A stretch of 64,000 nt of DNA from Acidobacteriaceae bacterium (GTDB lineage: Bacteria > Acidobacteriota > Terriglobia > Terriglobales > Acidobacteriaceae). The stretch is from positions 1,409 through 65,408 of the forward strand of contig DATAXW010000001.1 in the NCBI GenBank assembly GCA_036272895.1, given 5' to 3'. Within the stretch, counting starts at the first letter, position 1. Every line of letters starts with the position of its first letter. The notes beneath the pieces were generated by a model. The model was not told the origin of the DNA and made no database searches. It worked only from the letters and a program-made list of their open reading frames with translations. Of the stretch, positions 5,746 through 40,575 are shown piece by piece. Position numbers and translations under genes: made by a program.

Positions 5746-5748
5746 GTC

Positions 5749-5936
5749 TTGACACGCCCGCTATAATAAAGACAGAGCAACACCTCAGCCCGGCCACCGC
5801 CGGGTTTTCGTCTTTAACTCACAGCTCAGAGCTCAGAGCTGACAACTGAAAGCACGAACCGGAGATAACCCACCCGAAGTCCGGACCTAACTCCAATCGT
5901 CCGAAGACTTTGCGCAAAATAGGCGGGGGAGGGGGT
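5749..5936 (+). repeat. Dispersed intergenic element, copy A (TTGACA-N7-TATAAT, hairpin, CTAA-N12-GAAGACTTTGCG core, G tail)
   Basis: Same ordered motifs as 25095-25238 (+) and 40293-40501 (-). The spacer contains five heptamers, TCACAGC/TCAGAGC/TCAGAGC/TGACAAC/TGAAAGC (5819-5853). Confidence 0.88.
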
Positions 5937-5943
5937 ACCCCGC

Positions 5944-8007
5944 TCATCGCGAAGTCTGCAACACCGCCACTCCATACTGCGGCAGGCTGACACTCGAAAC
6001 CGCCCCGCCGTTCAGCACATCCTCCATCGAGCTCGGCAGCTTCACCGTCTCCGCCTCCGCGTTATAGTTCGTCAAAATCAGCACGCGCTTTCCATCGCCC
6101 ACGCGCAGCGCCACATCCACGCCCTCGGGAATCTCCTGCAACACCGGCGCAACCCCGCTCTCCGAGAGCATCCAGCTCGCCGCGCGGTCCATCGTCGCCG
6201 CATCGAGCCATGCGCCGACATACGTAATGCTTCCGCTGCCGACCTTCCGCGTCACCACCGCCGGCTGATCGTCCAGCCATCCATTGCTCTTGCCGTAGCG
6301 CATCAGCACATCCGTCCCCGGCTCAAGCGACCCCATCTGCTCCGCCCAGATCGTGTCCTTGCCCGCACCCCACACGCCGCTCACCGGAACCGTCGTATCC
6401 AGCGCATAGAACTGCTCCACCTTCGCGCCCAGCAGGCTCACCAGCGGCCCCGGCTGCCGCTCGGTCCACAGGCTGTTGTCCTCATCCTTCATCCCCGCGC
6501 GCGGCCCCAGCACCAGGTGCCCCCCACCCCGCACATACGCCTCCAAATTCTTCGCCGCCTCCGGCGTCAGCACATTCAGCGACGGCGCCACCACCAACTT
6601 ATATCGGCTCAGCGGCGCAGTGTCCGCCACAATGTCCACCGACCGCGCCAGCTGATGCAGCGGCCGATAGAAGCTCAGCAGCGACTCCACCGGATCGTAT
6701 GCCTTGTTATGCCGCTGCCAGTCGATCGCCCACCGGCTCGGATAGTTGTTCAGGATCGCCACCTCCGACTGCACCGTCGTTCCCTCCAGCGTCGCCGCCG
6801 CTTTGTCGAAGTCCTCGCCAATCTGCTTCACCTCGCTGTACAGCGGAACCGGCTCCCCATCCGGCCCCACCAGCGTCCCGTGGTACTGCTCCTGCCCATT
6901 CAGCGCGCTGCGCCACTGCCAGTACTCCACCGCCTCCGATCCATGGCCGATCGCATTCCACGCCATCGCCCGCACCTCGCCCTTGTTCAGCGCATTATTG
7001 TCCGGCGACCAGTTCACAAACCCCGGCTGCGTCTCCATCACCCAGAAGTTCTTGCGCAGGAATCCGCGTGTCAAATCGTGCGTCGCTCCGTTCTTCACCG
7101 GATCGAGCTGCCCCGTGCCCACATAGTCGTCCCACGCCGCCAGATCCAGATCCTGCGCCACGGTGTACTGGTCATATGCGTCGAACCACCCCATCATGTT
7201 TGTCGTGATGAACTGCCGCGGATCGGCATGCGCGCGAATCACCTCAAGCTGGTTCTTCTGATAGCTCCGCCACGTATCCGAGACGAACTCCTTCCAGTTC
7301 AGTAGCAGCCCCGGATTTCCATACCGTTCCTCAATCGGAATCTGGCTCCAGTCCTGGTACGTCTCGCTCCAATACGCCGTCGTCCATCGCCGGTTCAGGT
7401 TGTCGAGCGTCTTGTACTTCGCCCGCAGCCAGTCCTGAAACTGCCTCTGCGTGCTCGGCCCATAGCTCTCGGCCGCAAACTCGTTGCCAATCTGCCAGCC
7501 AATCACATTGGGATCATGCCCAAACCGCTCCGCCAGCTTCTCCGCCATCAGCCGCGTCAGCTCGCGATACTTCGGATCGCTCCAGTCGAACTGCTGCCGG
7601 TTCCCATGCTCATCCCTGCGCCCATCCTCCTTAATACGCAGCGTCTCCGGATACTTCTGTGTCAGCCACGCCGGAGGCGCAGCCGATGGCGTCCCCATCA
7701 CCACCGCAATATGGTGCCGCTCTGCCGCCCGCACCGCGCGATACAGCCAGTCGAGCTCGAAGTCGCCCTCCTTCGGCTCCAGCGTGCTCCACGCAAACTC
7801 TCCCACGCGCACAAAGTGAACGTGCGCCGCCTCCATCAGCGATAGGTCCGCATCCCACCGCGACTCCGGCCACTGCTCCGGATACCACGCCGCCCCCAGC
7901 AGCAGCGCCGGCTTCCTCGGCGCCTGCGGCAGCGGAGCCTGCGCCTGAACCACCACCAGGGAACTCGAAAGAAGCAACACACCTGCGCACACGGAGCGAA
8001 ACGTCAT
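5944..8007 (-). CDS. Beta-galactosidase, glycoside hydrolase family 42, with a predicted signal peptide
   Basis: GAAWYPEQWP, VRVGEFAWS, WQIGNE, FWVMETQPG and EQYHG motifs; start placed at ATG 8007 (MTFRSVCAGVLLLSSSLVVVQA). Confidence 0.93.
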   Translation of the reverse strand: MTFRSVCAGVLLLSSSLVVVQAQAPLPQAPRKPALLLGAAWYPEQWPESRWDADLSLMEAAHVHFVRVGEFAWSTLEPKEGDFELDWLYRAVRAAERHHIAVVMGTPSAAPPAWLTQKYPETLRIKEDGRRDEHGNRQQFDWSDPKYRELTRLMAEKLAERFGHDPNVIGWQIGNEFAAESYGPSTQRQFQDWLRAKYKTLDNLNRRWTTAYWSETYQDWSQIPIEERYGNPGLLLNWKEFVSDTWRSYQKNQLEVIRAHADPRQFITTNMMGWFDAYDQYTVAQDLDLAAWDDYVGTGQLDPVKNGATHDLTRGFLRKNFWVMETQPGFVNWSPDNNALNKGEVRAMAWNAIGHGSEAVEYWQWRSALNGQEQYHGTLVGPDGEPVPLYSEVKQIGEDFDKAAATLEGTTVQSEVAILNNYPSRWAIDWQRHNKAYDPVESLLSFYRPLHQLARSVDIVADTAPLSRYKLVVAPSLNVLTPEAAKNLEAYVRGGGHLVLGPRAGMKDEDNSLWTERQPGPLVSLLGAKVEQFYALDTTVPVSGVWGAGKDTIWAEQMGSLEPGTDVLMRYGKSNGWLDDQPAVVTRKVGSGSITYVGAWLDAATMDRAASWMLSESGVAPVLQEIPEGVDVALRVGDGKRVLILTNYNAEAETVKLPSSMEDVLNGGAVSSVSLPQYGVAVLQTSR

Positions 8008-8105
8008 AGAAACCCTCGGACTCAACTTCCTGCTTAGCGAAATACCTGCAACCGTCGCACGCGCCACTATCTCATCCCCACGCACTGTCACAAACCGCCA
8101 CCAGC

Positions 8106-9746: not shown

Positions 9747-9870
9747 TCTGGAAACCCTTTCTGTTATGAACTCAAGCGGAATCCAGCTTACATCCTCACG
9801 AATTCACGTGCATCTCCGCTCTTTCGGCTCGCAGTACGCGCGACGGGGACTTCCGCCCCCTCGCCATCGT

Positions 9871-12123: not shown

Positions 12124-12134
12124 CGCCTGCTCCC

Positions 12135-13133: not shown

Positions 13134-13150
13134 ACTCGCGTCTCCAGCTC

Positions 13151-13825: not shown

Positions 13826-14016
13826 CCATCTCCTCCTCGCCACAACTTCTGGAGACTCTGCGCTTATTCTGCTGTCAACAGGCAGCGAAAAGCAAAAAGG
13901 CCAATTACTTTATTCGCTATCCTGAAACGCAGCTGCCCTGGCGTAGTCAAACTCACTCGCATCTAAAGCGAAGAAACGAAAACGTCGAAGAAGCAAAAAA
14001 CGTGGAGCTCTCCTGA

Positions 14017-15291: not shown

Positions 15292-15437
15292 GAAGATTCA
15301 GTGGGCCGCCGGACGCCGCCCGCCATCAGCCACTCTGGCTTCCGTCGCGCACAGCATTTTTGCATCGTGTGCCATGTCGGCGGAATCACATCCAGATACG
15401 TCTCTGCATGGGTTCAGAGTTAACAGGAGATATCTGC

Positions 15438-16688: not shown

Positions 16689-16691
16689 CGG

Positions 16692-21364: not shown

Positions 21365-21825
21365 ACACAACTCATCCGAACATGAATGTGGAATAGAGAG
21401 AGCTCAATTTAAATCCGCGACAATCTTTGCTTAAGCTGCTATCGAACGCGACCCCACACTTTATTCGACAAGTTGTCGCATGATACATTTCCAACATGGC
21501 GCTTCGTACACGGAATCTTTCTCGTCGACTTTGTTGATCGACAGGTTCGCGCCTTGGCGGAGCTGCCCGGCTCCTCCTCTGACTCCCCCTATCTATCGCG
21601 CCGTATAACGCGTCAGCGTTTACATCCATTGGATGACATGATCTCAAGATCGATTGAGCTGCATCACCGTCTTCCGCGTGTCGAGCCCCTTCGGGGATCC
21701 ACGCCCCTTGCTTGTTGTCGCCTCTAAAACATCTCCCTCTTCTCATGCTGTTCGACCGATAGCCGCTACTTCGCCGGCCTATCCCCTGCATGTGTACGCC
21801 CGAGCTGCGTACCGCGGAGATCCCC

Positions 21826-25032: not shown

Positions 25033-25094
25033 GGCGTGTAGCCGGTGTTCCGGGAAGAGGCGGCGGCGGACGAAGAGCGCCACACCTCAGCCCC

Positions 25095-25238
25095 TTGACT
25101 CACCCTGTACAATTAAACAAAGAGACAAAGGCCCGGCGCGCGCCGGGCCTTTGCACTTACCAGCCCCTTCGCTGCGCCCGAAGTCCGGACCTAACTCTTT
25201 TCATCCGAAGACTTTGCGCAAAATAAGGGGGAGGGGGG
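25095..25238 (+). repeat. Dispersed intergenic element, copy B
   Basis: TTGACT-CACCCTG-TACAAT; hairpin CAAAGGCCCGGCG/CGCCGGGCCTTTG; CCCGAAGTCCGGACCTAA-N12-GAAGACTTTGCGCAAAAT; GGGGGAGGGGGG. Confidence 0.88.
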
Positions 25239-25313
25239 AGCATTCTCCTGAAGGCGTAGTGAAGACGGAAACCGCGTATCAGGAGAAATGCTCTAGACTA
25301 CCGCACAGGCCCA

Positions 25314-26354
25314 ATGGCAAAGCAGAAACCAAGCTCCGCCGCTCCGCCGCGCGTCAGCCTCAAGATGCTCGCCGAGCACCTCGACCTCTCCCCCGCCACC
25401 GTCTCCTTCGTCCTCAACAACGCCCCCAACCGGTCCATCCCCCAGGTCACCCGCGACCGCGTCAAAGCCGCCGCAAAAAAGTTCGGCTATCGCCCCAACC
25501 TCATCGCCCGTTCCCTCCGCGGAACCAATACCTGCACCATCGGCATCCTGCTCCCGGTCTTCGGCGAAGGCTACCACTCCCAGGTCCTCGAAGGCGCCGG
25601 CGACGTCTTCATGAAGGAGGGCTACTTCTTCTTCACCGCCCACCATCGCCACCGCAAGGACCTCGTCGCCGAATACCCGCAGCTGCTCTTCTCCCGCGGC
25701 GTCGAAGGCATCCTCGCCATCGACACCCACCTCGAAGAGGCCCCGCCTTCACCCACCGTCGCCATCGCCAGCCACACCGCACTCCCCGGCGTCACCAACA
25801 TCCTCCTCGACAGCCACCGCGCCGCCGAACTCACCCTCGGCCATCTCTACCGCCTCGGCCACCGCCACATCGCCTTCATGCAGGGCCAGGAGTTCAGCTC
25901 CGACTCCCACGCGCGCTGGAAGGCCACCCTGCAGGTCGCCCGCACCCTCGGCCTCCGTGTCGACCCCGACCTCACCATCCGCCTCAGCAAGGACATGCAG
26001 TCCCCCGAGCTCGGCTACCCCGGCGTCCAGCGGCTCCTCGCCCGCCGCCGCGACTTCACCGCCGTCGTATGCTTCAACGACATCTCCGCCATCGGCTGCA
26101 TCCGCGCCCTCCACGACGGCGGCCTGCGCGTCCCCGCCGACGTCTCCGTCGTCGGCTTCGACGACATCCTCTCCGCCAGCTACCATGTGCCCAGCCTCAC
26201 CACCATCCGCCAGCCCCTCCACACTCTCGGCGCTCTGGCCGCCACCACCCTCCTCAAGAAGATGGCCCACGACCCGCAGCCCGATAGCATCCACATCGAA
26301 CCCGAGCTGGTCATCCGCGAGTCCACCGGCCTCTCCCCCATGAAGTCACCCTGA
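25314..26354 (+). CDS. LacI-family transcriptional regulator
   Basis: SLKMLAEHLDLSPATVSFVLN HTH; YRPNLIARSL hinge; VSVVGFDD, PSLTTIRQP. Confidence 0.95.
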   Translation: MAKQKPSSAAPPRVSLKMLAEHLDLSPATVSFVLNNAPNRSIPQVTRDRVKAAAKKFGYRPNLIARSLRGTNTCTIGILLPVFGEGYHSQVLEGAGDVFMKEGYFFFTAHHRHRKDLVAEYPQLLFSRGVEGILAIDTHLEEAPPSPTVAIASHTALPGVTNILLDSHRAAELTLGHLYRLGHRHIAFMQGQEFSSDSHARWKATLQVARTLGLRVDPDLTIRLSKDMQSPELGYPGVQRLLARRRDFTAVVCFNDISAIGCIRALHDGGLRVPADVSVVGFDDILSASYHVPSLTTIRQPLHTLGALAATTLLKKMAHDPQPDSIHIEPELVIRESTGLSPMKSP

Positions 26355-26402
26355 CCGAACTCGCACCGACGCATCGCAGCCTCCTCGCTACAATGGGATC
26401 GC

Positions 26403-27188
26403 ATGCCGACGTCCCCTGAACCCTCTCCCAACATCCTCGACCAGTTCCGTCTGGACGGCCGCACTGCCCTCGTGACGGGCGCTGCCAGCGGCCTCGGCGC
26501 GGCCATCGCCCTCGCACTGGCACAGGCCGGTGCCCGAGTCGCGGTCCACGGCAACCGCCGCCCCGCGACCGAAACCGCCGCACGCATAGGCAGAGAGTCT
26601 GCCGCATTCCAGGCAGATCTCTCCACCCCCGCCGGCCCCGGTCAGCTCTTCCGCGACGTCAAAGAACATTTCGACCACGCCATCGACATCCTTGTTAACA
26701 ACGCGGGCACAATCCACCGAGATGCCGCCGAGGACTTCAAGCTCGACGACTGGCAACGGGTTCTGCAAGTCAACCTCACCAGCGTCTTCCAGCTCTCACA
26801 GCTCGTTGCGCGGGACATCTTGGCGCGAGGTTACGGCGGTAAGATCATCAACATTGCGTCGCTCCTCAGCTTTCAGGGTGGTATCCGTGTGCCGGCCTAC
26901 GCGGCTTCCAAGGGAGGCGTCGCGCAGTTGACCAAAGCGCTCGCGAACGAGTGGGCACCACACAAAATCCACGTCAATGCCATCGCTCCTGGATATTTTG
27001 CGACGTCGAATACCGAGGCGCTGCAGGCGGATGAGACTCGTAACCGGCAGATTCTGGAGAGGATACCGGTCGGACGGTGGGGTGAACCCCAGGATCTGGC
27101 GGGAGCGGCGGTTTTCCTCGCATCTGCTGCAAGTAATTATGTTACGGGCACTGTACTGGTCGTCGACGGCGGATGGATGGCGAGATAG
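26403..27188 (+). CDS. kduD: 2-dehydro-3-deoxy-D-gluconate 5-dehydrogenase (SDR)
   Basis: TGAASGLG, NNAG, KIINIASLLSFQGGIRVPAYAASK, ILERIPVGRWG, VDGGWMAR are typical of KduD. Confidence 0.9.
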   Translation: MPTSPEPSPNILDQFRLDGRTALVTGAASGLGAAIALALAQAGARVAVHGNRRPATETAARIGRESAAFQADLSTPAGPGQLFRDVKEHFDHAIDILVNNAGTIHRDAAEDFKLDDWQRVLQVNLTSVFQLSQLVARDILARGYGGKIINIASLLSFQGGIRVPAYAASKGGVAQLTKALANEWAPHKIHVNAIAPGYFATSNTEALQADETRNRQILERIPVGRWGEPQDLAGAAVFLASAASNYVTGTVLVVDGGWMAR

Positions 27189-27250
27189 ACCACGTTTCGC
27201 TGTGGTTTCCGGGTGGTTTTTTGTGGTTCCGTTGCGGTTCCGTGCACCAC
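27189..27250 (+). repeat. Helically phased GTGGTT-box array flanked by ACCAC
   Basis: GTGGTT at 27202, 27213 and 27223, GCGGTT at 27234 (spacing 11, 10, 11); inverted ACCAC at 27189 and 27246. Confidence 0.6.
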
Positions 27251-27305
27251 GTGCTAACACGATCGTGCGATTGGGTCGGCCCGTCGGAGCTCCCATACTT
27301 GGCAG

Positions 27306-27536
27306 ATGGCGCGGAGCGGAGATGGTCTCGAGGATATTATTCTGAGGCTTCCCGCGTCGTTGCGGAGCCGGGCCGAGGAGATGGCCGCGAGCGAGGAGCT
27401 GTCACTCAATCTGTTCGTGGCGACGGCGATCGCGGAGAGGCTGCAGCGTCTTCAGTTGAGCCATTGCCTGGGGATCTCCGACCAAGATGAGCTCCGTCAC
27501 CGCCGGGTGGGCGAAGGGCTTCCTCTGATTCACTAG
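27306..27536 (+). CDS. Small ribbon-helix-helix protein (HicB/Arc-like DNA-binding domain)
   Basis: IILRLPASLRSRAEEMAASEELSLNLFVATAIAERL matches the LRLP..L....A..E..SLN RHH pattern. Confidence 0.7.
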   Translation: MARSGDGLEDIILRLPASLRSRAEEMAASEELSLNLFVATAIAERLQRLQLSHCLGISDQDELRHRRVGEGLPLIH

Positions 27537-27680
27537 TGTTTTGATCGCCTGACGGGCGTATCGCCTCTCGACTTCCGCGCAGAAACAGGCTCGGATGGCA
27601 TGGCGACATGGTGTTGCGGGCGCTACAAAAGGCGTAGCTGCGAGGCCCCCAGATCCGAGAGAAACTTCTACGACTGCGAC

Positions 27681-27763
27681 TGTGCAATTCCTTGCACATT
27701 GCTCTTCGGTGGCTCAGGTAACCGCTTGATTTCAGGGATAGTCAGTTCGGCACGCAATGTGCA
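27681..27763 (+). promoter_or_regulatory. Sigma-54 promoter with IHF site and palindromic enhancer (UAS), upstream of a PEP-CTERM gene
   Basis: TGTGCAA-TTCC-TTGCACA palindrome 27681-27698; AATCAA-GCGG-TTA on the minus strand at 27719-27731 (exact WATCAA-N4-TTR); CGGCACGCAATGTGCA with GG(27749)-N10-GC(27761). Confidence 0.8.
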
Positions 27764-27910
27764 ACTAGGGACTGCGAGCACGCAGACGATTGGGGCCCGG
27801 CAGCACTGGTTCGCTGGCCACCGCTTCAAGGGGAGGGTCTTGCAGCTCAAGGCGGCAGCAAAATCAGGGCACCTCCGCGGAGGTGGAGGTTCAGGAGGAT
27901 TAAAGGGACT

Positions 27911-28537
27911 ATGAAGACAACATTCAAAATTCTTGCTCTCGGGGCTGCAATTGCAGCATCCGCAACTTTGGCGAAGGCGGATACCATCAACGGGACCTTC
28001 GCCATGTCGGGAAATGACACCTACACCAGCTCGAGCGTCAACTTCACGAATTCGGTGGTGGGCGCAGCCGGTGATACGGGGAAAACTGGGATTACGGGCA
28101 GCTTCGCCACCTATCTGAACGACGGCGATGCTGTGATCTTCACCAACCCGATCGACTACACCCAGGGCACAAACGTCGTAAACCCTGCGGCGCTGGCCTT
28201 CACCATCGACGACGGATCGAGTAACCCACTGTATACCTACGACGTGTCGGAGTATACCGCCACGTACGTCGACCTTGGCAGCGGGAACACCTACCTGATC
28301 ATCACAGGCCACGGCACGTTCAACGGAGAGGGCGCTGCCGCGGGGTTGGGATCGGCACCCGGCACCTTCTACTTCAGCACCCAGACCGTTGACTACTCGC
28401 CGGGCGGTACGACCTTCTCGGTCTCCGCTGGATCGCTTGGACCGGTTCCTGAGCCGAGCAGTCTGGCTCTGTTAGGGACCAGCCTTCTGGGCGCCGCGGC
28501 GATCGCTCGCCGCCGCTTTCTCGCCCGGTTGTCGTAA
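27911..28537 (+). CDS. PEP-CTERM sorting-domain surface protein (Ser/Thr/Gly-rich)
   Basis: Signal peptide MKTTFKILALGAAIAASATLAKA; C-terminal VPEPSSLALLGTSLLGAAAIARRRF. Confidence 0.95.
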   Translation: MKTTFKILALGAAIAASATLAKADTINGTFAMSGNDTYTSSSVNFTNSVVGAAGDTGKTGITGSFATYLNDGDAVIFTNPIDYTQGTNVVNPAALAFTIDDGSSNPLYTYDVSEYTATYVDLGSGNTYLIITGHGTFNGEGAAAGLGSAPGTFYFSTQTVDYSPGGTTFSVSAGSLGPVPEPSSLALLGTSLLGAAAIARRRFLARLS

Positions 28538-28560
28538 GTTCTCAACCTTAACAAGACTCA

Positions 28561-28590
28561 GGGAGCCCTCGCGGGCTCCCGTTCTTTTTG
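28561..28590 (+). terminator. Intrinsic terminator
   Basis: GGGAGCCC-TCGC-GGGCTCCC followed by GTTCTTTTT, just after the PEP-CTERM stop. Confidence 0.8.
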
Positions 28591-28623
28591 GCCGCAGATC
28601 TTCCGGCTTCAGGGGATCTGATT

Positions 28624-29100
28624 AGGGCTGAAGCCCCGTTTGTCGTTGCGGACCTCTTCAGCGGCCTGAGAGGTGCTGCTACTCCGGCCTGCCGTGGCCT
28701 GAACGCTCGGATCATCCGATCGGTTTTGGCGGGAAGGCAGTGATGATCCCATCGGGTTTGCCCGTTCCGGCGATCTTCCGTGCCAGAGGGGCGCCGCTGC
28801 TCCATGCGGAGGACAAATCGTGATCCCGCCGGGGCTGAAGCCCCTGCCCTCCGAGTTGCTTTCAGCGGCCTGAAGGCCGCTGTTAATCCCTATGTTTCGG
28901 TGGATGGAAGGCCGCTGCTAATCCCATGTTTCGGTAGCCTGAAGGCGGCTGCTCCTCCAGCGTCTCAGCGGCCCGACCGTCGCTGTTGCCCGGCGCCTTC
29001 CATGAGCGGAGGGCCGCGGACCGTCGCGCCATTTTCGATGGCCTGACGGCTGCGGCTTATTCACGCGATTCCGGTGGACGAAGGACCGCGCGGGGCGTAT
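28624..29100. repeat. REP doublets plus a degenerate ~35-bp tandem array
   Basis: GGGCTGAAGCCCC at 28625 and 28832; units resembling TTCAGCGGCCTGAAGGCCGCTGYTAATCCC start at 28861, 28896, 28930, 28964, 28998, 29034 and ~29070. Confidence 0.75.
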
Positions 29101-29132
29101 TCCGGCGTCTTCGCTCGGGCGACGATGCTCTG

Positions 29133-31427
29133 CTACAAGCTGCCGAGCGCTTTATTGGCATCGGCCCCGGACTGAGAGGAGGGAGCGAGGCTTACCGCCT
29201 TCTTCAGATGGAGGATGGCGTTGTCCTTCTGCCCCAGCTTCGAATAGATCATGCCCAGGTGATACTCGATCGACGCATCGTTGGAGTCTGTCTTTTCGGC
29301 GTCCTCGAGAACATCCCGCGCCGATCCGTAGATGCCCTTCTTGTAGTAGGCCCAGGCGAGGGTATCGGCTGTGTTGGGCGAGTGCGGCATGGCGCGGCGC
29401 GCCGTCTCGGCGAGCGAGAGCGCGACGTCCGTGTCCTGGCCGCTCTGCAGCATCAGGTAGGCGAGGTTGTTGGCCGCCACCGGCTGATCCGGCTGGATGG
29501 CGAGCGCCTTCTTGTAGGCATCGGTGGCAGCGCCGACGTTGCCCTGGGCCTCCGCGAGGGTGCCGACGATGACGTCTCCGCGAGGATCGTTGGGGTGAGC
29601 ACTGCTCCATCCCTTCCACTTGGCCATCGCCGGAGCCACGTTGCCCTGCGCCACCATCGCGCGGGTGTAGGCCATAATGGCGGCACCGTCGCCGGGATTG
29701 ATCTGCATGGCCTTCTGTGAGGAGTCCAGAGCGCCGGGAACATCCCTTTGCATGAGCTGCAGGGTGGCCAGCTGATCGTAGAGAAGGCTGTTGCGGGGAG
29801 AGCGGCCGATCTGCTGCTCGACAAGATTGATCGCCTTCTGCGGCTGATGCTGAAACAGGTCGTACTCGACGAGGAGTTGAAGCGCGGACAACGAATTGGG
29901 ATTGGCATCAAGAGCCTGCTGCAGGAGCGTAGCGCCCTCGGGGTAACGCTTCTGGTTGAAGCGCAGCTGGCCAAGCTCCACAAGAGCCGTGACGTTCTTC
30001 GGGTCTTTCTGCAGGGCGGTCTCGAAGTCGGCTCCGGCCTGATCCATCTGATTCTGGTGGGCCTCGGTCAGACCTCGCCAGACATATCCGTCCGCATCGT
30101 CAGGATGTTTGGCCAGCAGCTTCTGCGAGAGATCGGCGAGCGTTGGATAGTCTTTATTCTCCAGGGCGACGGTGGCCAGGGCCTTCTGGGCCTCGACGTT
30201 GTCGGGCGCGAGACGAAGCGAATCGCGGAGGTTCTGCTCGGCGCCGGCCAAGTCCCCCTTGGCCTTGTCGGTCTCGCCCAGCCAGAATTTCAATCCGGCG
30301 TTATCCGGCGAGTTCTTGACCGCCTTCGTCAGCAGCGTATAGGCATCATTCACCTTACCGGAGCGCAACAGCAACATTCCGCTGAGCGCCTGCACCTGAG
30401 GATTGTCGCCGTTGCTCTTGTCGAGCTGGTTGGCGATGTCCTGCACCTTGGCGAAGTTTCCCTGCGCCAGCAGGATACGGGCGTAGGCCATCTTGATGGG
30501 AAGACTCTTCGGGTACTTGTTGACGAGGCCGGCATAGACGGAGGATGCGCGGTCGACCTGTCCGGTCTGCATGTAATAGGTCAAGAGCAGATTTGCACCG
30601 GGCTCGGTGTCGTGCAGCTTGTCGGTGGCCTGCGCGAGGGCGGCCTCTGCCTGCTGCTTGTTGCCCTGCCGGTAGTAGATCCCGGAGAGCGTCACCCAGG
30701 CGCGGATGTTCTTGGGGTCGGCCTGCGTCGCTGCCTGGGCCTGCTGGATGGCTCCTGCGGTGTCACCCTTCTTGGCCAGCACGGCCGCAAGCAGGAGATG
30801 AGCGGAGGAATTCTTTGGATCGAGCTCTACGGCCTTCTTCAGCTGATCTTCGCCGGCCTCGGCGGTGGCTGGATTGGAGGCCTGAATGAGGCCGAGCTCG
30901 GCGTGAAAGCCGGCGCGATTGGGGTCCAGCGCCAGGGCCTGCTGAATGTCGGTGAGGGCGGTGTCGTGATCGCCGGCCGACATCGCCACTCCGGCGAGCA
31001 GGCCGTAGGCGTCGGCGTCCTTGGGGTTGATGGCGAGGATGGCCTTGGCCTGCTCCTGCGCCTTTTCCGGCTGGTGGCTGGCGAGAAAGATCTGGCCGAG
31101 ATCGAGCCGCGCCTCGACGTTGTTCGGATCGAGATCGACGGTATGGCGCAGTTCGGTATAACCGGCCAGCATCGATCCTGTCTTGAGATACGCCTTGGCC
31201 AGCTCGAAACGCGCAGCGGCATAGTGAGGATCAATCTTGACGGCGTTGGAGAACTGGATGATGGCTTCCTTCTCTTTGCCCTGCTGCGCGTACTTCTTGC
31301 CGCTGGCGAGATACTTCGCCTTGCGCACGTTCGGGTCGCGGGTGCATCCCTGCACCATCATTGCCAGGATGAGGACCGAAGCTACGGCGGAGAGACGGCT
31401 GATCTTTTTCGCGTTCCAGTTTGTCAT
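29133..31427 (-). CDS. TPR-repeat lipoprotein of the PEP-CTERM/exosortase system (PrsT-like)
   Basis: Lipobox MVQGC; many TPRs; C-terminal AANNLAYL...DTLAWAYY...YHLG; co-directional with epsI and exosortase. Confidence 0.88.
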   Translation of the reverse strand: MTNWNAKKISRLSAVASVLILAMMVQGCTRDPNVRKAKYLASGKKYAQQGKEKEAIIQFSNAVKIDPHYAAARFELAKAYLKTGSMLAGYTELRHTVDLDPNNVEARLDLGQIFLASHQPEKAQEQAKAILAINPKDADAYGLLAGVAMSAGDHDTALTDIQQALALDPNRAGFHAELGLIQASNPATAEAGEDQLKKAVELDPKNSSAHLLLAAVLAKKGDTAGAIQQAQAATQADPKNIRAWVTLSGIYYRQGNKQQAEAALAQATDKLHDTEPGANLLLTYYMQTGQVDRASSVYAGLVNKYPKSLPIKMAYARILLAQGNFAKVQDIANQLDKSNGDNPQVQALSGMLLLRSGKVNDAYTLLTKAVKNSPDNAGLKFWLGETDKAKGDLAGAEQNLRDSLRLAPDNVEAQKALATVALENKDYPTLADLSQKLLAKHPDDADGYVWRGLTEAHQNQMDQAGADFETALQKDPKNVTALVELGQLRFNQKRYPEGATLLQQALDANPNSLSALQLLVEYDLFQHQPQKAINLVEQQIGRSPRNSLLYDQLATLQLMQRDVPGALDSSQKAMQINPGDGAAIMAYTRAMVAQGNVAPAMAKWKGWSSAHPNDPRGDVIVGTLAEAQGNVGAATDAYKKALAIQPDQPVAANNLAYLMLQSGQDTDVALSLAETARRAMPHSPNTADTLAWAYYKKGIYGSARDVLEDAEKTDSNDASIEYHLGMIYSKLGQKDNAILHLKKAVSLAPSSQSGADANKALGSL

Positions 31428-31551
31428 TACAGTTCCTTCCCGGGTTACGTGCGGCGCCGGCTCTCCCGGCAGACCGTTCTGTGTTCGCGTACCCGCATTG
31501 CACCTTTCCATGGGAATCCAATCTCTCCTGAGAGAGAGCGGCAATCAGTCG

Positions 31552-32208
31552 CTAGTTGGGGATAAACCTGGGCAGAAGCGGCGTCATCTTCGCGGTGAAA
31601 TGAATCGCGCGCTGCTGTGCCTGAGCGATGGTCTCCGTGGGCAGCACCGGCGTGACGACGCGAATGAGAGCGCCATCGGTGCGGTTGGAGCGGAGAGCAT
31701 CGAGCATCATGTAGGCCTTGGCCACATAGTCGTTGGCCACGCTGCGGCCGTGAGCGAGGTACCAATAGAGCACAACCTGCCTGCCGTCGGCGTTGCCGAT
31801 CAGATACTCGCCGACCTGCATGACCTTTCCGTCCTCGCCGGTGACGTGGATGACCTGCGAGGAGAGGAAGGACCAGCCGGAGCCGGGCAGGCAGTTCTGC
31901 GGCGAGTGAATGGACTGGCCGGTGCGCTGCGTCGGGAAGTACCCGATGAAGAGAGAGACGGGCACGGTGGCCGCGGCGGCGGCGGGACCTGTCCGCGTGT
32001 AGACGCGATTGAGAAAGCGGCCGTCGCCGAGAACGTCGAGGGTCGCCTGATCGAGCGGGATGTCCTGGCCTGTCCAGGAGCCGATCGTCTCGGGCATCAG
32101 GGTGAGCGGAGGCGTCGGGGGCACGCGGTCGACGTCACCGCGCAGATGCAGGGTGACGAAACAGCCGAAGAGCAGGAGAACGACTACCCAAAAGCGTAAG
32201 GACTTCAT
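31552..32208 (-). CDS. epsI: EpsI-family exosortase-associated protein
   Basis: SLFIGYF, IHSPQNCLPGSGW, VVLYWY, RTDGALIRV motifs. Confidence 0.92.
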   Translation of the reverse strand: MKSLRFWVVVLLLFGCFVTLHLRGDVDRVPPTPPLTLMPETIGSWTGQDIPLDQATLDVLGDGRFLNRVYTRTGPAAAAATVPVSLFIGYFPTQRTGQSIHSPQNCLPGSGWSFLSSQVIHVTGEDGKVMQVGEYLIGNADGRQVVLYWYLAHGRSVANDYVAKAYMMLDALRSNRTDGALIRVVTPVLPTETIAQAQQRAIHFTAKMTPLLPRFIPN

Positions 32209-33137
32209 GCGGATCTCCTGGCATGCCGCTGCTTGCTGAGCCGCTGCTGCATCTGCATGGCGGAGTGGAGAAAGTAGAGACAGATGAGACAGACCACGAA
32301 GATCAGCCAGCCGGAGAACTCATGAAAGAAGCCGAGCGCCTTGTTGGGATCCCAATACTGGACGGCGAGGCCGGTGCCGACGATCCGAACGCCGTTGGCG
32401 AAGACCGCGATGGGAATGCTGGCCAGCGCGAGGATGAGGCGACGCTTGGGGCTGGGCTCGAGGAAGTATCCGTAGAAGATGGCCGCGGTGAGAAGACTCA
32501 TCAGGGAACGAATGCCGCTGCAGGCCTCGGCTACTTCAAGCTGCATTGAAGGAAGCTGAATGATGTTGCCGTCGCGGAGTACGGGAACGCCGAAGAGCGG
32601 CAGCGCGGCGCTGGCGAACTTCGAGGCCAGGATCTGCAGAGGGAAGGTGATCTGGTTGTAGATCACGGCCGGCAAAGGAACGGCCAAGAGGAGAACGAGC
32701 AGCGGAAAGCGGAGCTCGCGGAGAAAGGCTCGGCCGGCAAGGGTCCAGATGAGGCCGCCGAACAGCATGATCAGGGAGAGACGAGAGAGGAAGAGTTCGG
32801 CGCCATAGACCCCGAGAAATAGAGTGAAGATGGAGGCGACCACCAACAGGACGCCGGCCCAGCTCGGCTTAACGGGGATCTGACGCAGCGCATCACGCTT
32901 CTTCCAGATCAGGAATGCGGAAAACAGAGGCACGAGAAAGCCGTGCGAGAAGTCTGGATTGCTGTACCAGTCGTAGACGAGCTTTGCGACGACTCCGTAG
33001 TAGATAGCTACGATCAGGGCAGCAAGAAGAATCAGGGGAAGCCAGCGCTTCCACGCGGAACGTAGCGGGGGCATCGCGCGTGGCCCTCGTTCGGGCGCAG
33101 CGGGAGCGGGATGTACAGCTGGTTGGGTGACCAACAT
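32205..33137 (-). CDS. xrt: Exosortase (EpsH family)
   Basis: SHGFLVP; catalytic triad context VAEACSGIRS, ANGVRI, FFHEFSGW; 8 TM segments. ATG 33137 chosen because it lies downstream of the sigma-54 site. Confidence 0.95.
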   Translation of the reverse strand: MLVTQPAVHPAPAAPERGPRAMPPLRSAWKRWLPLILLAALIVAIYYGVVAKLVYDWYSNPDFSHGFLVPLFSAFLIWKKRDALRQIPVKPSWAGVLLVVASIFTLFLGVYGAELFLSRLSLIMLFGGLIWTLAGRAFLRELRFPLLVLLLAVPLPAVIYNQITFPLQILASKFASAALPLFGVPVLRDGNIIQLPSMQLEVAEACSGIRSLMSLLTAAIFYGYFLEPSPKRRLILALASIPIAVFANGVRIVGTGLAVQYWDPNKALGFFHEFSGWLIFVVCLICLYFLHSAMQMQQRLSKQRHARRSA

Positions 33138-33163
33138 GCTTTTGAGGTCCTCAAGGAAGTGCA

Positions 33164-33180
33164 AGCAATTTTAATGCCGC
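33164..33180 (-). promoter_or_regulatory. Sigma-54 promoter for the exosortase-epsI-TPR operon
   Basis: Minus strand CGGCATTAAAATTGCT = GG-N10-GC, about 28 bp upstream of ATG 33137. Confidence 0.75.
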
Positions 33181-33229
33181 ACAGAACCGTGTACTTCCCT
33201 TAGGCTACTTCACGTCACGCAAAAACAAA

Positions 33230-33270
33230 TGAGAATCTTCTTGCACAAGAGTGGCAAAGTTTTTCCCACT
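33230..33270. promoter_or_regulatory. Putative shared enhancer (UAS) between divergent sigma-54 promoters
   Basis: TGAGAATCTTCTTGCACA resembles the 27681 palindrome; the adjacent ACAAGAGTGGCAAAGTTTTTCC nearly recurs at 42854-42874. Confidence 0.6.
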
Positions 33271-33416
33271 TTTGGGTCTTTGCGCTCGCGTAATAATAGA
33301 ACCTTCATGGGGGCTATGGGCCGGACTGGACGCAGGAAGCTCTGGACACTAGGCCAGACCGCATGTTCCGAACCGTGCCGCAATTGTCGGAGCTTCAGGA
33401 GCTCTTTTGCTGCCGT

Positions 33417-33433
33417 TTGGCAATCGTTGTGCT
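33417..33433 (+). promoter_or_regulatory. Sigma-54 promoter for the polysaccharide export operon
   Basis: TTGGCAATCGTTGTGCT = GG(33419)-N10-GC(33431), followed by GAGGA and GTG 33460. Confidence 0.7.
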
Positions 33434-33459
33434 TACAGCCTTGGTTGAGGAAGTGTTTT

Positions 33460-34146
33460 GTGACGGTATCCTATCCGAAGAGTGCGGCAGTACGATGCAG
33501 TTTGGCCCGATCCCTGGCCATAGGGTTCATTCTCGCCATGGGTTTTGGAGGGGTCGCCTCCTATGGACAGGCGGCGAAGCCTATCCTCACGCCGGCCCCG
33601 GCACCCCCGTCTTCCGCCCCAGCTCCACCCCAAGCCCCGGTGAATACAAATCAGACGGTGGATACCTCTACCTATGTAATTGGCCCGGAAGATGTTCTGC
33701 AGGTCACGGTATGGAAGGAGCCGACCTTATCGGGGAGCTTCCCGGTACGGCCCGATGGGATGATCTCGATGGTGCTCCTGGGCGATGTAAAGGCGGCCGG
33801 ACTGACACCTATGCAGCTGAGCGCGAACCTGACCACACAGCTCAAGAAGTATGTTCAGGATCCGCTTGTAACTGTACTGGTACAGGCGGTTAACAGCCAG
33901 AGGGTTTACATCGTAGGCGAGGTCGGCCACGTCGGACCGGTTCCGCTTACGCCGGGCATGAGCCCACTTCAGGCGATTGCAGAGGCGGGCGGTCTGACTC
34001 CTTACGCCAAGCAGAAGCACATCTACATTCTGCGTGGCCCGCAGGGTAAGCAGCAGAAGATCTTCTACAACTACAAGAAAGCAATGCGCGGGGAAGGAAA
34101 GCAGGACATCGCGCTGCTTCCCGGGGATACGGTCGTGGTTCCATGA
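33460..34146 (+). CDS. Polysaccharide export protein, short periplasmic OPX (Wza-like)
   Basis: YVIGPEDVLQVTVW, VRPDGMIS, VYIVGEV, LLPGDTVVVP; no lipobox and no C-terminal membrane helix; GTG start with RBS. Confidence 0.9.
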   Translation: MTVSYPKSAAVRCSLARSLAIGFILAMGFGGVASYGQAAKPILTPAPAPPSSAPAPPQAPVNTNQTVDTSTYVIGPEDVLQVTVWKEPTLSGSFPVRPDGMISMVLLGDVKAAGLTPMQLSANLTTQLKKYVQDPLVTVLVQAVNSQRVYIVGEVGHVGPVPLTPGMSPLQAIAEAGGLTPYAKQKHIYILRGPQGKQQKIFYNYKKAMRGEGKQDIALLPGDTVVVP

Positions 34147-35447: not shown

Positions 35448-35456
35448 GTATTGCTT

Positions 35457-36989: not shown

Positions 36990-36991
36990 CC

Positions 36992-38877: not shown

Positions 38878-38895
38878 ATTAGATCACGGGCTTCC

Positions 38896-40272
38896 ATGAT
38901 CAGATTTTTCAATGTCTACTATCCAACGCGGACGATCATCCTCATTCTCTGCGAGGCGCTGATCGTTTACGGGTCGTTTGTGCTTGCCTCTGTGCTTCTG
39001 CTGGGGCCGTCGACGATGGATGTGCTGGCCGACCGGCATGGGGTGGTAAAGATCGGCGCCCTGACCGTCCTGACAATCCTCTGCGCGTACTACTTCGACC
39101 TGTATGAGCCGCAGCAACTGTCGGCGCCGTGGGAGATCTACTTCCGGCTGCTGCTGGTGATCGGCTGCCTGTCACTGCTGCTGTCGCTGGTGGTGTTCGT
39201 GTTTCCGCAGGTGGACATCGCGCGGTATGTGTTCCTGCTGGGGCTGGGGCTGGTGGTGATTCTGCTTACCGTGTGGCGGCACGCGTTTGAGTGGATCAGC
39301 GGAAAATCGATGTTTCGGGAGCGGGTGTTCGTCCTGGGCACGGGGGTGATCGCGGCGAACCTGGTGGAGTCGATCCGGAACCGCAAGGAGGCGGGGATGG
39401 AGGTGATTGGGTCGGACAGTCCCCTGCTGCACCCGATCGCCGGCCATGGAGCCTCGGCGGCGACGATCGATCAGGTGGCGTTGATGAAGCCGCCGGTGGA
39501 CCGCGTGGTGATCGCGCTCGAGGAGCGCAGGGGCGAGCTTCCGGTGGATGCGCTGCTGGCGATGCGGATGCGCGGCGTGGAGATCGAAGAGGTGGGCAGC
39601 CTGCTGGAGCGGCTTACGGGCAAGATGCAGCTTGAAGGGCTGCGGCCGAGCAATCTGCTGTTCTGCGAGGGCTTCAACATGAAGCGATCGCTGCAGGTGA
39701 CGCAGCGTGTGGCATCGACCATTGCGGCGCTTACGATCCTGCTGCTGTTTCTTCCCTTCTTTCCGTTCGTGGTGCTGGCGGTGAAGCTCTCGTCCAAGGG
39801 GCCGGTGTTTTTTTCGCAGACCCGGGTGGGGTTGGAGGGGCATGTGTTCAACGTGCACAAGTTCCGCACCATGTTTACCGATGCCGAGGCCAAAGGCGCG
39901 CGGTGGGCGACCAAGGACGACCCTCGGGTGACGCGGGTGGGTGCGTTTTTGCGCAAGACCCGGATCGACGAGGTGCCGCAGCTATGGAACGTGCTGCTGG
40001 GCGAGATGAGCTTCGTAGGCCCAAGGCCGGAGCGGCCGGAGTTCATCTCCTGGCTGGCGGAGGAGATTCCGTTTTACAACCTGCGGCACATGGTGCGGCC
40101 GGGGCTGACGGGATGGGCCCAGGTGCGCTATGGCTACGGTGCGACGCTGGCCGAGAGCCGCGAGAAGCTCTCCTTCGACCTCTATTACCTGAAGCACAAG
40201 TCCCTGGGACTGGACCTGCTGATCATGTTTGAGACGATCAAGACGATCGTCCGGCGGCGCGGAGCGCAGTAG
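38896..40272 (+). CDS. Priming sugar transferase (undecaprenyl-phosphate glycosylphosphotransferase), PEP-CTERM-associated type
   Basis: N-terminal TMs; KFRTM, DDPRVTRVG.FLRKTRIDEVPQL, GEMSFVGPRPERP, RPGLTGWAQV. Confidence 0.95.
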   Translation: MIRFFNVYYPTRTIILILCEALIVYGSFVLASVLLLGPSTMDVLADRHGVVKIGALTVLTILCAYYFDLYEPQQLSAPWEIYFRLLLVIGCLSLLLSLVVFVFPQVDIARYVFLLGLGLVVILLTVWRHAFEWISGKSMFRERVFVLGTGVIAANLVESIRNRKEAGMEVIGSDSPLLHPIAGHGASAATIDQVALMKPPVDRVVIALEERRGELPVDALLAMRMRGVEIEEVGSLLERLTGKMQLEGLRPSNLLFCEGFNMKRSLQVTQRVASTIAALTILLLFLPFFPFVVLAVKLSSKGPVFFSQTRVGLEGHVFNVHKFRTMFTDAEAKGARWATKDDPRVTRVGAFLRKTRIDEVPQLWNVLLGEMSFVGPRPERPEFISWLAEEIPFYNLRHMVRPGLTGWAQVRYGYGATLAESREKLSFDLYYLKHKSLGLDLLIMFETIKTIVRRRGAQ

Positions 40273-40292
40273 GCCTCGCGGTTTGCTGGCTT

Positions 40293-40501
40293 ACCTCCCC
40301 CACCCGGCACTTTTTGCGCAAAGTCTTCAAACCGCAAGACTTAGGTTCGGACTTGGGGTGAAAACTGAGTGAAACGTCCGGAAATTTGCGCCGGTTGGCC
40401 GCAAAGTCTTCAGGCATCGGCGGTTAGAACACTCAAAGAGCGGAAATAGAAAGGCCCGGGTATGGGCCGGGCTGATGCTTCTATTGTACTGCGGCTGTCA
40501 A
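40293..40501 (-). repeat. Dispersed intergenic element, copy C (reverse orientation, duplicated core box)
   Basis: Minus strand: TTGACA-GCCGCAG-TACAAT; GCCCGG/CCGGGC hairpin plus CTTTC; CTAA-N12-GAAGACTTTGCG twice (40400-40427 and 40315-40344); G tail GGGTGGGGGAGG. Confidence 0.85.
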
Positions 40502-40575
40502 GAGCGAGAAAGCCGACAGGTCACGGGGGAGGGATGCGTTTTATCAGGGCGGGTGCAGAAAGGCCAAGCATACCT

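Follow-up and report, generated by a model that had tools for sequence, protein, structure and literature searches.

What kind of sequence recurs, with its parts always in the same order, at three intergenic places in 64,000 nucleotides of the genome of an Acidobacteriaceae bacterium (this whole stretch is called the window here)? The original prediction described a three-copy element, but a genome scan showed the three copies to be members of a modular intergenic repeat family of soil Acidobacteriaceae, apparently undescribed, with about 60 members per genome.

Anatomy and distribution of the element

The three copies were found where they had been predicted, with the same order of parts, as follows.

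Copy A
5748-5767 (+): head, with the left-border base C at 5748, TTGACA at 5749-5754, N7, and TATAAT at 5762-5767
5787-5816 (+): terminator-like hairpin GCCCGGC/GCCGGGT (stem-loop 5787-5806), then a T-rich tract
5876-5919 (+): terminal unit, with GAAGTCCGGAC at 5876-5886, CTAA at 5887-5890, N12, and GAAGACTTTGCGCAAAA at 5903-5919
5925-5939 (+): right border, with the G-run GGGGGAGGGGG at 5925-5935 and TACC at 5936-5939

Copy B
25094-25113 (+): head, C followed by TTGACT (25095-25100), N7, and TACAAT (25108-25113)
25127-25152 (+; terminator score on the reverse strand): hairpin AAAGGCCCGGCGCGCGCCGGGCCTTT (stem-loop 25130-25149)
25180-25223 (+): terminal unit GAAGTCCGGAC-CTAA-N12-GAAGACTTTGCGCAAAA (CTAA 25191-25194, core 25207-25223)
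25227-25238 (+): right border, G-run

Copy C
40483-40502 (-): head, C followed by TTGACA (40501-40496), N7, and TACAAT (40488-40483)
40444-40472 (-): terminator-like hairpin GCCCGGC..CCCGGGC (stem-loop 40472-40454) with CTTTCTATTT
40400-40427 (-): first unit CTAA-N12-GAAGACTTTGCG (CTAA 40427-40424, GAAGAC 40411-40406)
40312-40354 (-): terminal unit AAGTCCGAAC-CTAA-N12-GAAGACTTTGCGCAAAA (CTAA 40344-40341, core 40328-40312)
40294-40305 (-): right border, G-run GGGTGGGGGAGG (40305-40294)

As had been claimed, each copy has one end near a stop codon: copy A lies 4 nt 3' of one gene, with a convergent gene about 5 nt beyond its other end, copy B begins 63 nt past a stop codon, and copy C ends about 21 nt short of the stop codon of a convergent gene. 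The second CTAA-N12 box assigned to copy C is also present, with its core preceding the terminal one by 83 nt, and the terminal core of this copy does contain a clean inverted repeat, AAGTCTT-N8-AAGACTT, which is not itself conserved among copies. Searches of the window against Rfam, including the Acido-1 and Acido-Lenti-1 models suggested earlier, gave no family that reached its gathering threshold, and a permissive scan of copies A and C returned only noise (E of 3 or more).

The source genome (G000; 3.46 Mb) carries about 58 to 64 elements, roughly 1 per 55 kb, which together occupy 0.4% of its DNA. With spacers of 2 to 25 allowed between TTGAC[AT] and TAYAAT, the pair matched 43 times, in every case at a spacer of 7, and a reversed-pattern control had no match; the box pair at this spacing is far above chance expectation. 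CTAA-N12-GAAGAC matched 65 times, 64 of them intergenic, and the N7 and N12 spacers both proved invariant. An element consists of five parts: a head, a hairpin, one to three units, a terminal unit, and a GGGGGAGGGGG tail. Heads of the main type read C-TTGACAC-N6-TAYAAT-AGAA, and those of a second type begin with the inverted box TGTCAAG. The unit is a T-rich stretch plus SAAGACTTTGC, present as a direct repeat one to three times per element. What had been taken for a spacer of unrelated sequence and length turned out to hold zero to two further degenerate units at fixed distances.

The linkage of head and core that had been expected holds for G000, where heads are essentially always tied to a tail 130 to 260 nt away, but not elsewhere. 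In genome G015, this head is combined with another kind of terminal unit; in G053, G049, and G052, the tail is present with only CTTGACAA at the left end, and these elements lack TAYAAT and often the hairpin but retain both ends; and other genera have the N7 box by itself. Head and core are therefore separable modules. Copy numbers among congeners range from 0 to about 60.

Constraint on blocks and spacings

The distances between units take few values: 41 nt (18 cases), 42 nt (3 cases), 53 nt (16 cases), 82 to 83 nt (6 cases), and 94 nt (3 cases), with two spacings of 29 nt outside this pattern. Seventeen three-unit copies could be aligned without gaps over 170 nt. Identity in the 54 variable columns of this alignment was 27.5%, compared with 25.5% expected by chance, and indels were almost absent among copies despite these random columns. 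At two orthologous sites, in comparisons with species having just 70 to 83% identity in the flanks, the blocks were retained and the remainder had diverged. The pattern indicates that blocks and spacings are under selection, and it bears out the earlier argument from fixed spacers with free sequence for selection rather than recent copying. The near-integral helical spacing is based on three to four independent values, with a probability of roughly 3 to 6% by chance.

No covarying helices were detected in the variable columns of the unit array on either strand (alifold energy, −1.5 kcal/mol); compensatory changes, between copies and between species, were confined to the head hairpin. The unit array thus does not have the helices with compensatory changes that mark a structured RNA, an absence with which a linear array of RNA-protein motifs would be compatible. 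A CRISPR-like array was rejected, as there are at most three degenerate units, spaced 41 or 53 nt apart, at about 60 dispersed loci. A site for integration host factor (IHF) combines the consensus WATCAANNNNTTR with a tract rich in A/T upstream of it. This consensus has 38 matches genome-wide, 9 of which lie inside elements, that is, in 0.4% of the DNA; the full consensus is present in 5 of 17 middle units, and TCAANNNNTTG in 12 of the 17.

The head as a candidate promoter with its own terminator

The statement that a 7-nt spacer does not make a normal promoter stands for a sigma-70 −35/−10 pair: a canonical promoter (16- to 18-bp spacer) was rejected, with the spacer being 7 in 43 of 43 heads and no strict pair at 16 to 18, and a promoter scan of the three window copies found nothing. 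In other genera, however, the box is found in a promoter position ahead of genes. In a survey of the family covering 128 genera and 300 genomes, the box was matched in 36 genomes, with 0 to 2 copies in each genome surveyed (the reversed-box control gave 5 matches in total). Ten single-copy boxes fetched from other genera, to which the figures on promoter position apply, lie outside mosaic elements, 34 to 80 nt upstream of a Shine-Dalgarno (SD) sequence and ATG, and all ten fall 20 to 100 nt upstream of a start codon on the strand of the gene; most copies in G000 are placed otherwise, with 37 of 64 facing a convergent gene at its 3' end. Degeneration of the second hexamer to TAnnnT is also in line with a promoter. 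Three genera have an identical N6 ahead of an orthologous peptidase, five genomes have the box ahead of a small secreted peptide, and in a Cys-rich protein family a head or an element tail precedes all seven paralogues examined. Because of its position upstream of start codons, the N7 box in other genera behaves like a real, noncanonical promoter with predicted activity, and of the candidates named earlier this is the best-supported one for the head.

A hairpin is present in 38 of 43 heads (mean ΔG, −16.4 kcal/mol), and its median distance behind the box is 19 nt. The sequence upstream of it is 44% A, and in 36 of the 38 cases at least 5 of the next 10 nt are T. These features are those of an intrinsic (Rho-independent) terminator, and the hairpin is predicted to act as one; in terminator scans, the element strand scored for copies A and C, and the opposite strand for copy B.

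The elements could be multicopy genes for tiny RNAs, in which TAYAAT and a factor bound to TTGACAC would start an RNA of 40 to 50 nt, whose 5' end, variable and rich in purines, would precede the terminator hairpin, with the units and tail being separate or accessory. Along with the promoter position in other genera and the strong hairpin and T tract so close behind the box, two observations agree with this reading: the TAnnnT degeneration of the second hexamer and the variation of the 5' segment between copies. We nevertheless consider it unlikely, given the tight coupling of head and tail in G000, the retention of the ends in G053, G049, and G052 where TAYAAT and often the hairpin are missing, and the lack of an Rfam match. 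Moreover, transcription of nearly all copies would run against the G-rich strand, for which expressed RNA genes offer no known precedent.

Mobility and the search for a transposase

Of 19 places in G000 orthologous to the flanks of elements in other species, only 2 to 3 have an element nearby, and the comparison with empty sites that had been called for yielded one site that carries an element in G015 but not in G000. Because its positions are mostly species specific, the element has probably been mobile over evolutionary time. The two flanks of a copy resembled each other no more than shuffled pairs did (P = 0.24), giving no sign of a target-site duplication (TSD), and no terminal inverted repeats (TIRs) were found, the ends C-TTGACAC and G-run-TACC having only a weak C-run/G-run likeness. 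With neither TIR nor TSD, a cut-and-paste miniature element (MITE) of the DDE type was rejected.

No linked transposase was found, and the genes for IS200-like Y1, RAYT, and IS91 Y2 do not track the element-rich genomes. In the complete genome G068, 25 tails occur although neither Y1 is present; G049, G050, G013, G052, and G053 lack the IS200-like Y1; and RAYT, present in 58 of 101 genomes of the genus and 11 of 15 element-rich ones, is missing from G068, G067, G074, and G049. Searches for TnpB in the genome and for an autonomous copy of the element were negative. An IS91 or rolling-circle element was rejected, as a search of G000, G015, and G053 for its Y2 HUH transposase (PF04986) found none. 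Two features speak against an IS200/IS605-derived PATE: the hairpin of the head (GCCCGGC..GCCGGGC) is unrelated to the inverted repeat of the tail (AAGTCTT..AAGACTT), and TnpB is missing and the distribution of Y1 does not match. The strand orientation is that expected of a PATE (54:1 and 37:1), but this is true of all repeats in the genome. The tetranucleotide CTTG/CAAG is present at the left border of the element.

A purely selfish, nonautonomous single-stranded DNA transposon (PATE/REP-like, derived from a HUH Y1 or Y2 system) with no host function would use CTTGAC/TCAAG and G-run/TACC as cleavage or target motifs, and its orientation would reflect insertion at the fork. The asymmetric ends without TIR or TSD, the short terminal motif conserved in either orientation (CTTGACA or TGTCAAG), the hairpins close to both ends, the species-specific positions, and the Y1 genes in the genome are all consistent with such an origin, as is the extreme orientation bias, since IS200/IS605 elements are strongly biased relative to replication (PMC5027513, PMC3971601). 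Yet the saturated variable positions, the scarcity of indels, and the blocks kept at orthologous sites argue that each copy is under selection in place. Together with the unrelated end hairpins, the lack of a Y1 or Y2 gene that tracks the elements (G068 has none), and the lack of an autonomous copy, this makes a purely selfish transposon improbable.

Relation to neighboring genes and to strand skew

Downstream of 10 of 58 tails, an ORF of 80 or more amino acids starts within 15 nt, which is SD distance, and between divergent genes, as at C5:50672, the element fills the entire gap. Putative mobile promoters, in which the same promoter-bearing sequence stands before unrelated genes, are a known concept ("promoter reuse in prokaryotes"; PMC3575422), and the element resembles them in that one promoter-like sequence recurs before genes that have no relation to each other and at other places in the genome. 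It differs in that its box has a 7-bp spacer, is followed directly by a predicted terminator, and is one module of a larger element, with most copies facing no gene. It might be a portable 5' regulatory cassette that delivers a promoter, a leader with regulator sites, and a very strong SD sequence jointly to the downstream gene, as the constant association with the Cys-rich family would also suggest. Such a cassette is very unlikely: a strong predicted terminator separates promoter from SD sequence, the downstream genes are functionally unrelated, and 37 of 64 copies point at a convergent 3' end.

Relative to local GC skew, 54:1 tails and 37:1 heads in G000 lie on the C-rich strand, and the bias in G015 is 17 of 20. 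The unrelated families REP1 (27:1) and TGTCATCCTGA (131:0) have the same bias, which is therefore not specific to the element and is uninformative about it, and orientation lends no argument to the chromosome-architecture site proposed earlier. A polar site for replication or segregation, signaling fork direction or loading and unloading a chromosome-organizing protein, would fit the near-absolute co-orientation with strand skew, the density, and the phased, rigid, binding-site-like units but is hardly probable given the equal bias of unrelated repeats, a skew that is extreme but a mosaic with many flips rather than two replichores, with dnaA of G015 not at a switch point, and the range of 0 to about 60 copies among congeners.

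Discussion

Among known systems, the BIME/REP elements of enterobacteria (including the IHF-binding RIP/RIB type and REPINs) come close, being strictly intergenic, interspersed mosaics in which short conserved motifs are variously combined, often at convergent gene ends, with hairpins and an IHF-like site. The element differs from them in having a promoter-like box in its head, asymmetric ends, no association with RAYT, and, in place of a REP palindrome, direct repeats at a fixed spacing of 41 or 53 nt; a REP/BIME with an imperfect palindrome of 20 to 40 nt as its module was rejected for this reason. The true REPs of the genome have other sequences (GGGGCTTYAGCCCCTGAGG and the RAYT-flanking GGCGCGGCTTTAGCCGCGCC) and cluster with the elements, lying within 90 nt of 7 of 43 heads.

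BOX elements of Streptococcus pneumoniae (boxA-boxB(n)-boxC) are likewise noncoding, lie between genes, and combine a head, a variable number of middle modules of about 45 nt, and a tail. BOX elements fold into long stable RNA or DNA secondary structures, whereas the array studied here has no conserved pairing, and the two are unrelated in sequence. To our knowledge, neither a G-run tail nor a promoter-like box has been described for BOX. Correia elements (CREE) of Neisseria are comparable as small noncoding repeats; they introduce promoters, terminators, and an IHF site between genes and thereby alter the expression of their neighbors. Their 26-bp terminal inverted repeats and TA duplication are both missing here. 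With IS200/IS605 elements and PATEs, the element shares asymmetric ends without TIR or TSD, subterminal hairpins, and short conserved end or target motifs; it differs in its unrelated left and right hairpins, the absence of linked TnpA or TnpB, copies under selection in place, and a motif strand, as written, that is the C-rich one.

Our preferred reading, held tentatively and at somewhat less than even confidence, is that of an old, slowly mobile, nonautonomous BIME/BOX-like mosaic element of the Acidobacteriaceae that serves as DNA-level intergenic "punctuation," combining a self-terminated promoter with a phased protein-binding array. Its head would represent a noncanonical promoter class, with a TTGACAC box and a −10-like TAYAAT 7 bp apart, and the hairpin, with an A-rich tract before it and a T tract after it, would terminate both the head's own transcript and read-through from neighboring genes. 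The one to three units of the body (TAAG, a T-rich stretch, and SAAGACTTTGC) are about 4, 5, 8, or 9 helical turns apart and would therefore lie on one face of the DNA; they match the IHF consensus in part and are putative sites for a DNA-bending or element-specific protein. The GGGGGAGGGGG tail may act as an SD sequence wherever a gene happens to come next. New copies would be inserted in a single orientation with respect to the strand asymmetry of the chromosome, possibly via single-stranded DNA at the fork, a route resembling that of REP and IS200-type elements. BIME, REP, and REPIN elements are tolerated or used by their hosts and persist very long (PMC8049555). The copies described here, whatever benefit they may bring to the host, would likewise be retained for very long times under selection on their blocks and spacing.

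The element is a genome-wide family

Copies A (5749-5936, + strand), B (25095-25238, + strand), and C (40293-40501, − strand) of the element were found where the original prediction placed them, with the order of parts that it gave for all three. Copy A spans the entire 198-nt interval that separates a pair of convergent genes, copy B is intergenic between a gene for a protein of 1080 amino acids and one for a LacI-type regulator, and copy C, likewise intergenic, ends ∼21 nt from the stop codon of a convergent gene. The observation is confirmed and has been enlarged: what was described as a three-copy element is a family spread over the whole genome that contains the window (termed G000 herein; assembly of 3.46 Mb in 32 contigs, including the window). 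A pattern scan of this genome returned 65 matches to CTAA-N12-GAAGAC, at 64 loci, and 43 matches to the strict box pair TTGAC[AT]-N7-TA[CT]AAT. The invariance claimed for the 7-nt spacer was borne out genome wide, as all 43 strict pairs have a spacer of 7 and the remaining spacers from 2 to 25, including the canonical 16 to 18, gave zero. When looser boxes were allowed, 53 pairs were found at spacer 7, along with a small canonical bump (11 at spacer 17 and 7 at spacer 18).

Loci that appeared to consist of a head only carry variant tails (GAAGTTTTTGCGC, GAATACTTTGCGC, and CAAGAATTTGCGC), showing that a head in G000 essentially always has a tail and a G-run downstream. Loci that appeared to consist of a tail only carry variant heads. 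Some of these keep the N7 box with a second hexamer that decays as TAnnnT (TAAAAT, TAAACT, TACACT, or TATCCT), and in another form, the type-2 head, an inverted box (C followed by TGTCAAGCCC) stands at the start and TAnAAT-AGAG follows ∼70 to 100 nt downstream, with the palindrome GGAATTAATTCC or GGAATTCC immediately 5′ of TAnAAT. Counted by tail plus G-run, G000 has 58 elements, 42 with the type-1 head and at least 6 with the type-2 head, falling into length classes of ∼134 to 158, 187 to 217, and 214 to 260 nt.

The 64 loci lie between convergent genes (23 loci), tandem genes (same orientation, 16; opposite orientation, 14), and divergent genes (11). A long ORF starts within 15 nt downstream of 10 of the 58 tails, suggesting that a GGAGG inside the G-run may act as a Shine-Dalgarno sequence; the genes behind these tails encode products with no relation to each other (an amidohydrolase, an EamA transporter, RibBA, and a TPR protein).

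Fixed blocks, fixed spacings, and free filler

On the left, the element is bordered by an invariant C before TTGACAC, and on the right, by the G-run and a subsequent TACC(cc). Neither terminal inverted repeats at the element ends nor target duplications in the flanks (P = 0.24) were found. A hairpin is present in 38 of the 43 heads, starting at a median of 19 nt past the second hexamer with a mean ΔG of −16.4 kcal/mol, and its stem shows compensatory changes across copies and species. The 10 nt after the hairpin contain at least 5 T in 36 of the 38 copies and the sequence before it is A-rich (44% A), so that it is predicted to terminate transcription intrinsically along the element strand and, in part, along the opposite strand.

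In the array that follows, the unit cores ([CG]AAGAyTTTGC) are spaced by 41 (18 times), 42 (3 times), 53 (16 times), 82 to 83 (6 times), and 94 (3 times) nt, the only other spacing being 29 nt (twice); the main spacings amount to about 4, 5, 8, and 9 B-DNA turns. An alignment of 17 three-unit elements extends over 170 nt without any gap. About two-thirds of the columns are conserved, and the 54 variable columns show a pairwise identity of 27.5%, compared to 25.5% expected from composition. A filler that is saturated with substitutions and nearly free of indels implies selection on both the blocks and their spacing in each copy, as the original prediction had reasoned from fixed spacings and free spacer sequence. 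All column pairs of the array were also scanned for helices backed by variable columns; none was found on either strand, indicating that the unit array is no structured RNA. The core of the unit is similar to the IHF consensus, which we take as a lead and not as a result: 9 of the 38 matches to WATCAANNNNTTR in G000 fall inside elements, which make up 0.4% of the DNA, and the full consensus is found in 5 of the 17 middle units only.

Interspersed repeats of this lineage lie on the C-rich strand

The GC skew of G000 is extreme (up to ±0.3 in windows of 20 to 60 kb) and forms a mosaic that changes sign many times per Mb, one of these changes being at ∼26.7 to 27 kb of the window (region 20000-34000). 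The orientation of genes does not follow it, with 1,019 on the G-rich strand and 1,002 on the C-rich strand. At positions with an absolute skew of 0.1 or more, the C-rich strand is favored by heads at a ratio of 37:1 and by tails at 54:1 (P of about 1e-10 to 1e-15). In the complete genome G015, where sampling every 200 kb gave a similarly mosaic skew and dnaA (2.14 Mb) lies away from a switch point, 17 of 20 loci have the same orientation. Two further families of G000 are biased in this way, REP1, a REP-like family (GGGGCTTYAGCCCCTGAGG; ∼29 strict copies, 27:1), and the separate TGTCATCCTGA repeat (138 copies, 131:0). Since these families are unrelated to the element, its orientation bias is a property of the interspersed repeats of this lineage and not specific to the element. 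Examples of such separate repeats had been noted in the window near 3040 and at 19946-19997.

The orientation bias is compatible with strand-specific insertion, a known behavior of transposable elements, those of the HUH type among them (PMC5027513, PMC3971601), and does not prove this mechanism for the element.

The elements are gained and lost, and some may persist for very long

Of 19 element flanks from four other genomes (G015, G053, G049, and G068) that could be located in G000, only 2 or 3 have an element nearby. In one case, an element of G015 sits in the gap between convergent genes, and the corresponding gap in G000 measures 98 nt and contains no element; the junctions of this filled/empty pair are too diverged to define borders. 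Clean empty sites for copies A, B, and C were sought in relatives and not found, synteny being broken or the relatives too distant. Two sites are shared with species in which the flanks are no more than 70 to 83% identical: that of copy A with genome G057 and a metagenome contig (L169), and C3:216284 of G000 with genome G049. At both, the blocks are conserved, and the sequence of the filler and even its length are altered. Together, the few shared flanks, the filled/empty site, and the conserved shared sites show gain and loss over evolutionary time, with very long persistence under selection being possible. In one pair (G000 C31:89639-89869 and G015 C1:270704, locus L311), the elements lie upstream of the same gene in opposite orientations to it, each obeying the local skew of its own genome, which fits independent insertion as well as a rearrangement at the element.

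Known RNA families and transposases do not account for the element

The original prediction could name no family for the element, and an Rfam scan remained blank at gathering as well as permissive thresholds. We found no account of such a repeat in Acidobacteria in the literature. Readings as a sigma-54 promoter, a reverse-strand promoter, a small ORF ending at CTAA, or a CRISPR-like array were dropped on inspection of the sequence. TnpB is absent from G000. The Y1 genes of G000 are two:

C6:54982-55458 (L021:1450-1929), solitary IS200-like Y1 gene (PF01797, 89 bits)
C2:73251-73766 (L022:1387-1905), minus strand, RAYT gene (NF047646, 102.7 bits)

The IS200-like gene lies 640 nt from one element, yet across the genus it does not co-occur with elements. 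It has gltX-like and glyoxalase-like neighbors and a TGTCATCCTGA repeat just 5′, and hairpin ends are not visible. The RAYT gene is flanked by its own, different inverted REPs (a 34-nt inverted repeat, GGGTTTGAAAGGGCGCGGCTTTAGCCGCGCCACT, in a textbook RAYT-REP layout unrelated to the element), and its distribution across the genus is unlinked to that of the elements. In G068, a complete genome, 25 tails are present and neither kind of Y1 gene is. An IS91-type Y2 transposase is missing from three element-rich genomes, and its occurrence in the genus does not match that of the elements. Autonomous copies, with head and tail 0.4 to 6 kb apart around a gene, were not found besides two unrelated cases.

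Heads and tails are combined differently in different genomes

The tail pattern is present in 43 of 101 genomes of the genus, with 10 to 40 copies in about 17 of them, and among the genomes searched, amplification of the strict head is confined to G000 (38 copies) and G015 (48 copies). None of the conclusions depends on the unpublished genome G047. In G015, the G000-type head is joined to a different terminal unit, CTAA-N12-GCGGATCWTAGCCCCAAAAC-GGGGGAGGG; in G053, G049, and G052, the G000-type tail is paired with CTTGACAA, a minimal left end lacking TAYAAT. Further variants occur in other genera. Over all forms, the left end keeps a CTTGACA box, in either orientation, and the right end keeps CTAA, 12 nt, a conserved 17-mer, an A-rich sequence, and the G-run.

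The N7 box resembles a promoter in other genera

A scan of 300 genomes (128 genera of the family) found the strict box 0 to 2 times per genome, with a match in 36 genomes; a reversed control pattern gave 5 matches in total. Of 14 of these boxes that were inspected, 4 are within mosaic elements of G053 and G068. The 10 outside mosaic elements are all on the strand of a following gene, 34 to 80 nt 5′ of its Shine-Dalgarno sequence and start codon. TTGACAC-GTAAGC-TACAAT precedes an orthologous secreted peptidase gene in three genera, and the box precedes a gene for a secreted peptide of ∼50 amino acids (MKRAFRVLILMVGL...) in five genomes:

L284, L285, L287, L289, and L290, secreted peptide gene with TTGACAC-N6-TATAAT ∼50 to 65 nt upstream

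Judged by these positions, the box has the appearance of a genuine promoter in other genera.

Heads and tails also precede genes for a conserved Cys-rich protein family (CRHIxxDGRRCGSP...FCYFHH), with 7 of 7 paralogues examined in four genomes preceded by a head or an element tail. The family has ∼980 homologues in soil metagenomes, all annotated as hypothetical, shows a helical hairpin after the motif, and matches no Pfam family; the AlphaFold model (pLDDT of 63) was too poor for a structure search. In G053 and G068, a basic ORF of 65 amino acids lies between the head and the Cys-rich gene. The members in G000, for three of four of which the 5′ side is cut by contig ends, are:

C28:8787-9518 (L162:788-1522), Cys-rich gene
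C1:1-357, paralogue fragment
C23:43283-43450, paralogue fragment
C29:1-171, paralogue fragment

A proposed mosaic element with a putative promoter as its head

Readings of the family as tiny-RNA genes, as a purely selfish single-stranded DNA transposon, as a portable regulatory cassette, or as a polar chromosome site each explain part of the evidence and may hold instead. The interpretation with the best support is that of a new mosaic element akin to BIME, BOX, and Correia elements, in which the head is a predicted noncanonical, self-terminated promoter and the body consists of phased units resembling protein-binding sites.

A single sigma-70 molecule is unable to contact hexamers 7 bp apart, so that TTGACAC would need another reader if the box is active. 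Our tentative and, on balance, doubtful proposal is that TTGACAC-N6-TAYAAT is a genuine new promoter class of Terriglobia, in which the housekeeping sigma factor would bind the −10-like hexamer and a separate factor, possibly the Cys-rich protein, would bind TTGACAC, which is one helical turn too close for a −35 box. In some lineages, this promoter would have been captured and amplified ∼50-fold as the head of the mosaic element, whose phased units would assemble a nucleoprotein complex.

The Acidobacteriaceae rank among the most abundant bacteria of soils, and to our knowledge, hardly anything has been learned about their transcription signals and noncoding DNA. With ∼60 natural replicates per genome, invariant spacings of 7, 12, 41, and 53 nt, and random filler, the strict architecture allows direct tests of the hypotheses on protein binding, promoter activity, and termination. 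Should the N7 box work as a promoter, its geometry would lie outside current models of RNA polymerase. The family also exposes a lineage-wide rule, by which all interspersed repeats are placed on the C-rich strand of a mosaic skew of unusual strength, which is relevant to the spread of repeats and to chromosome rearrangement in this lineage.
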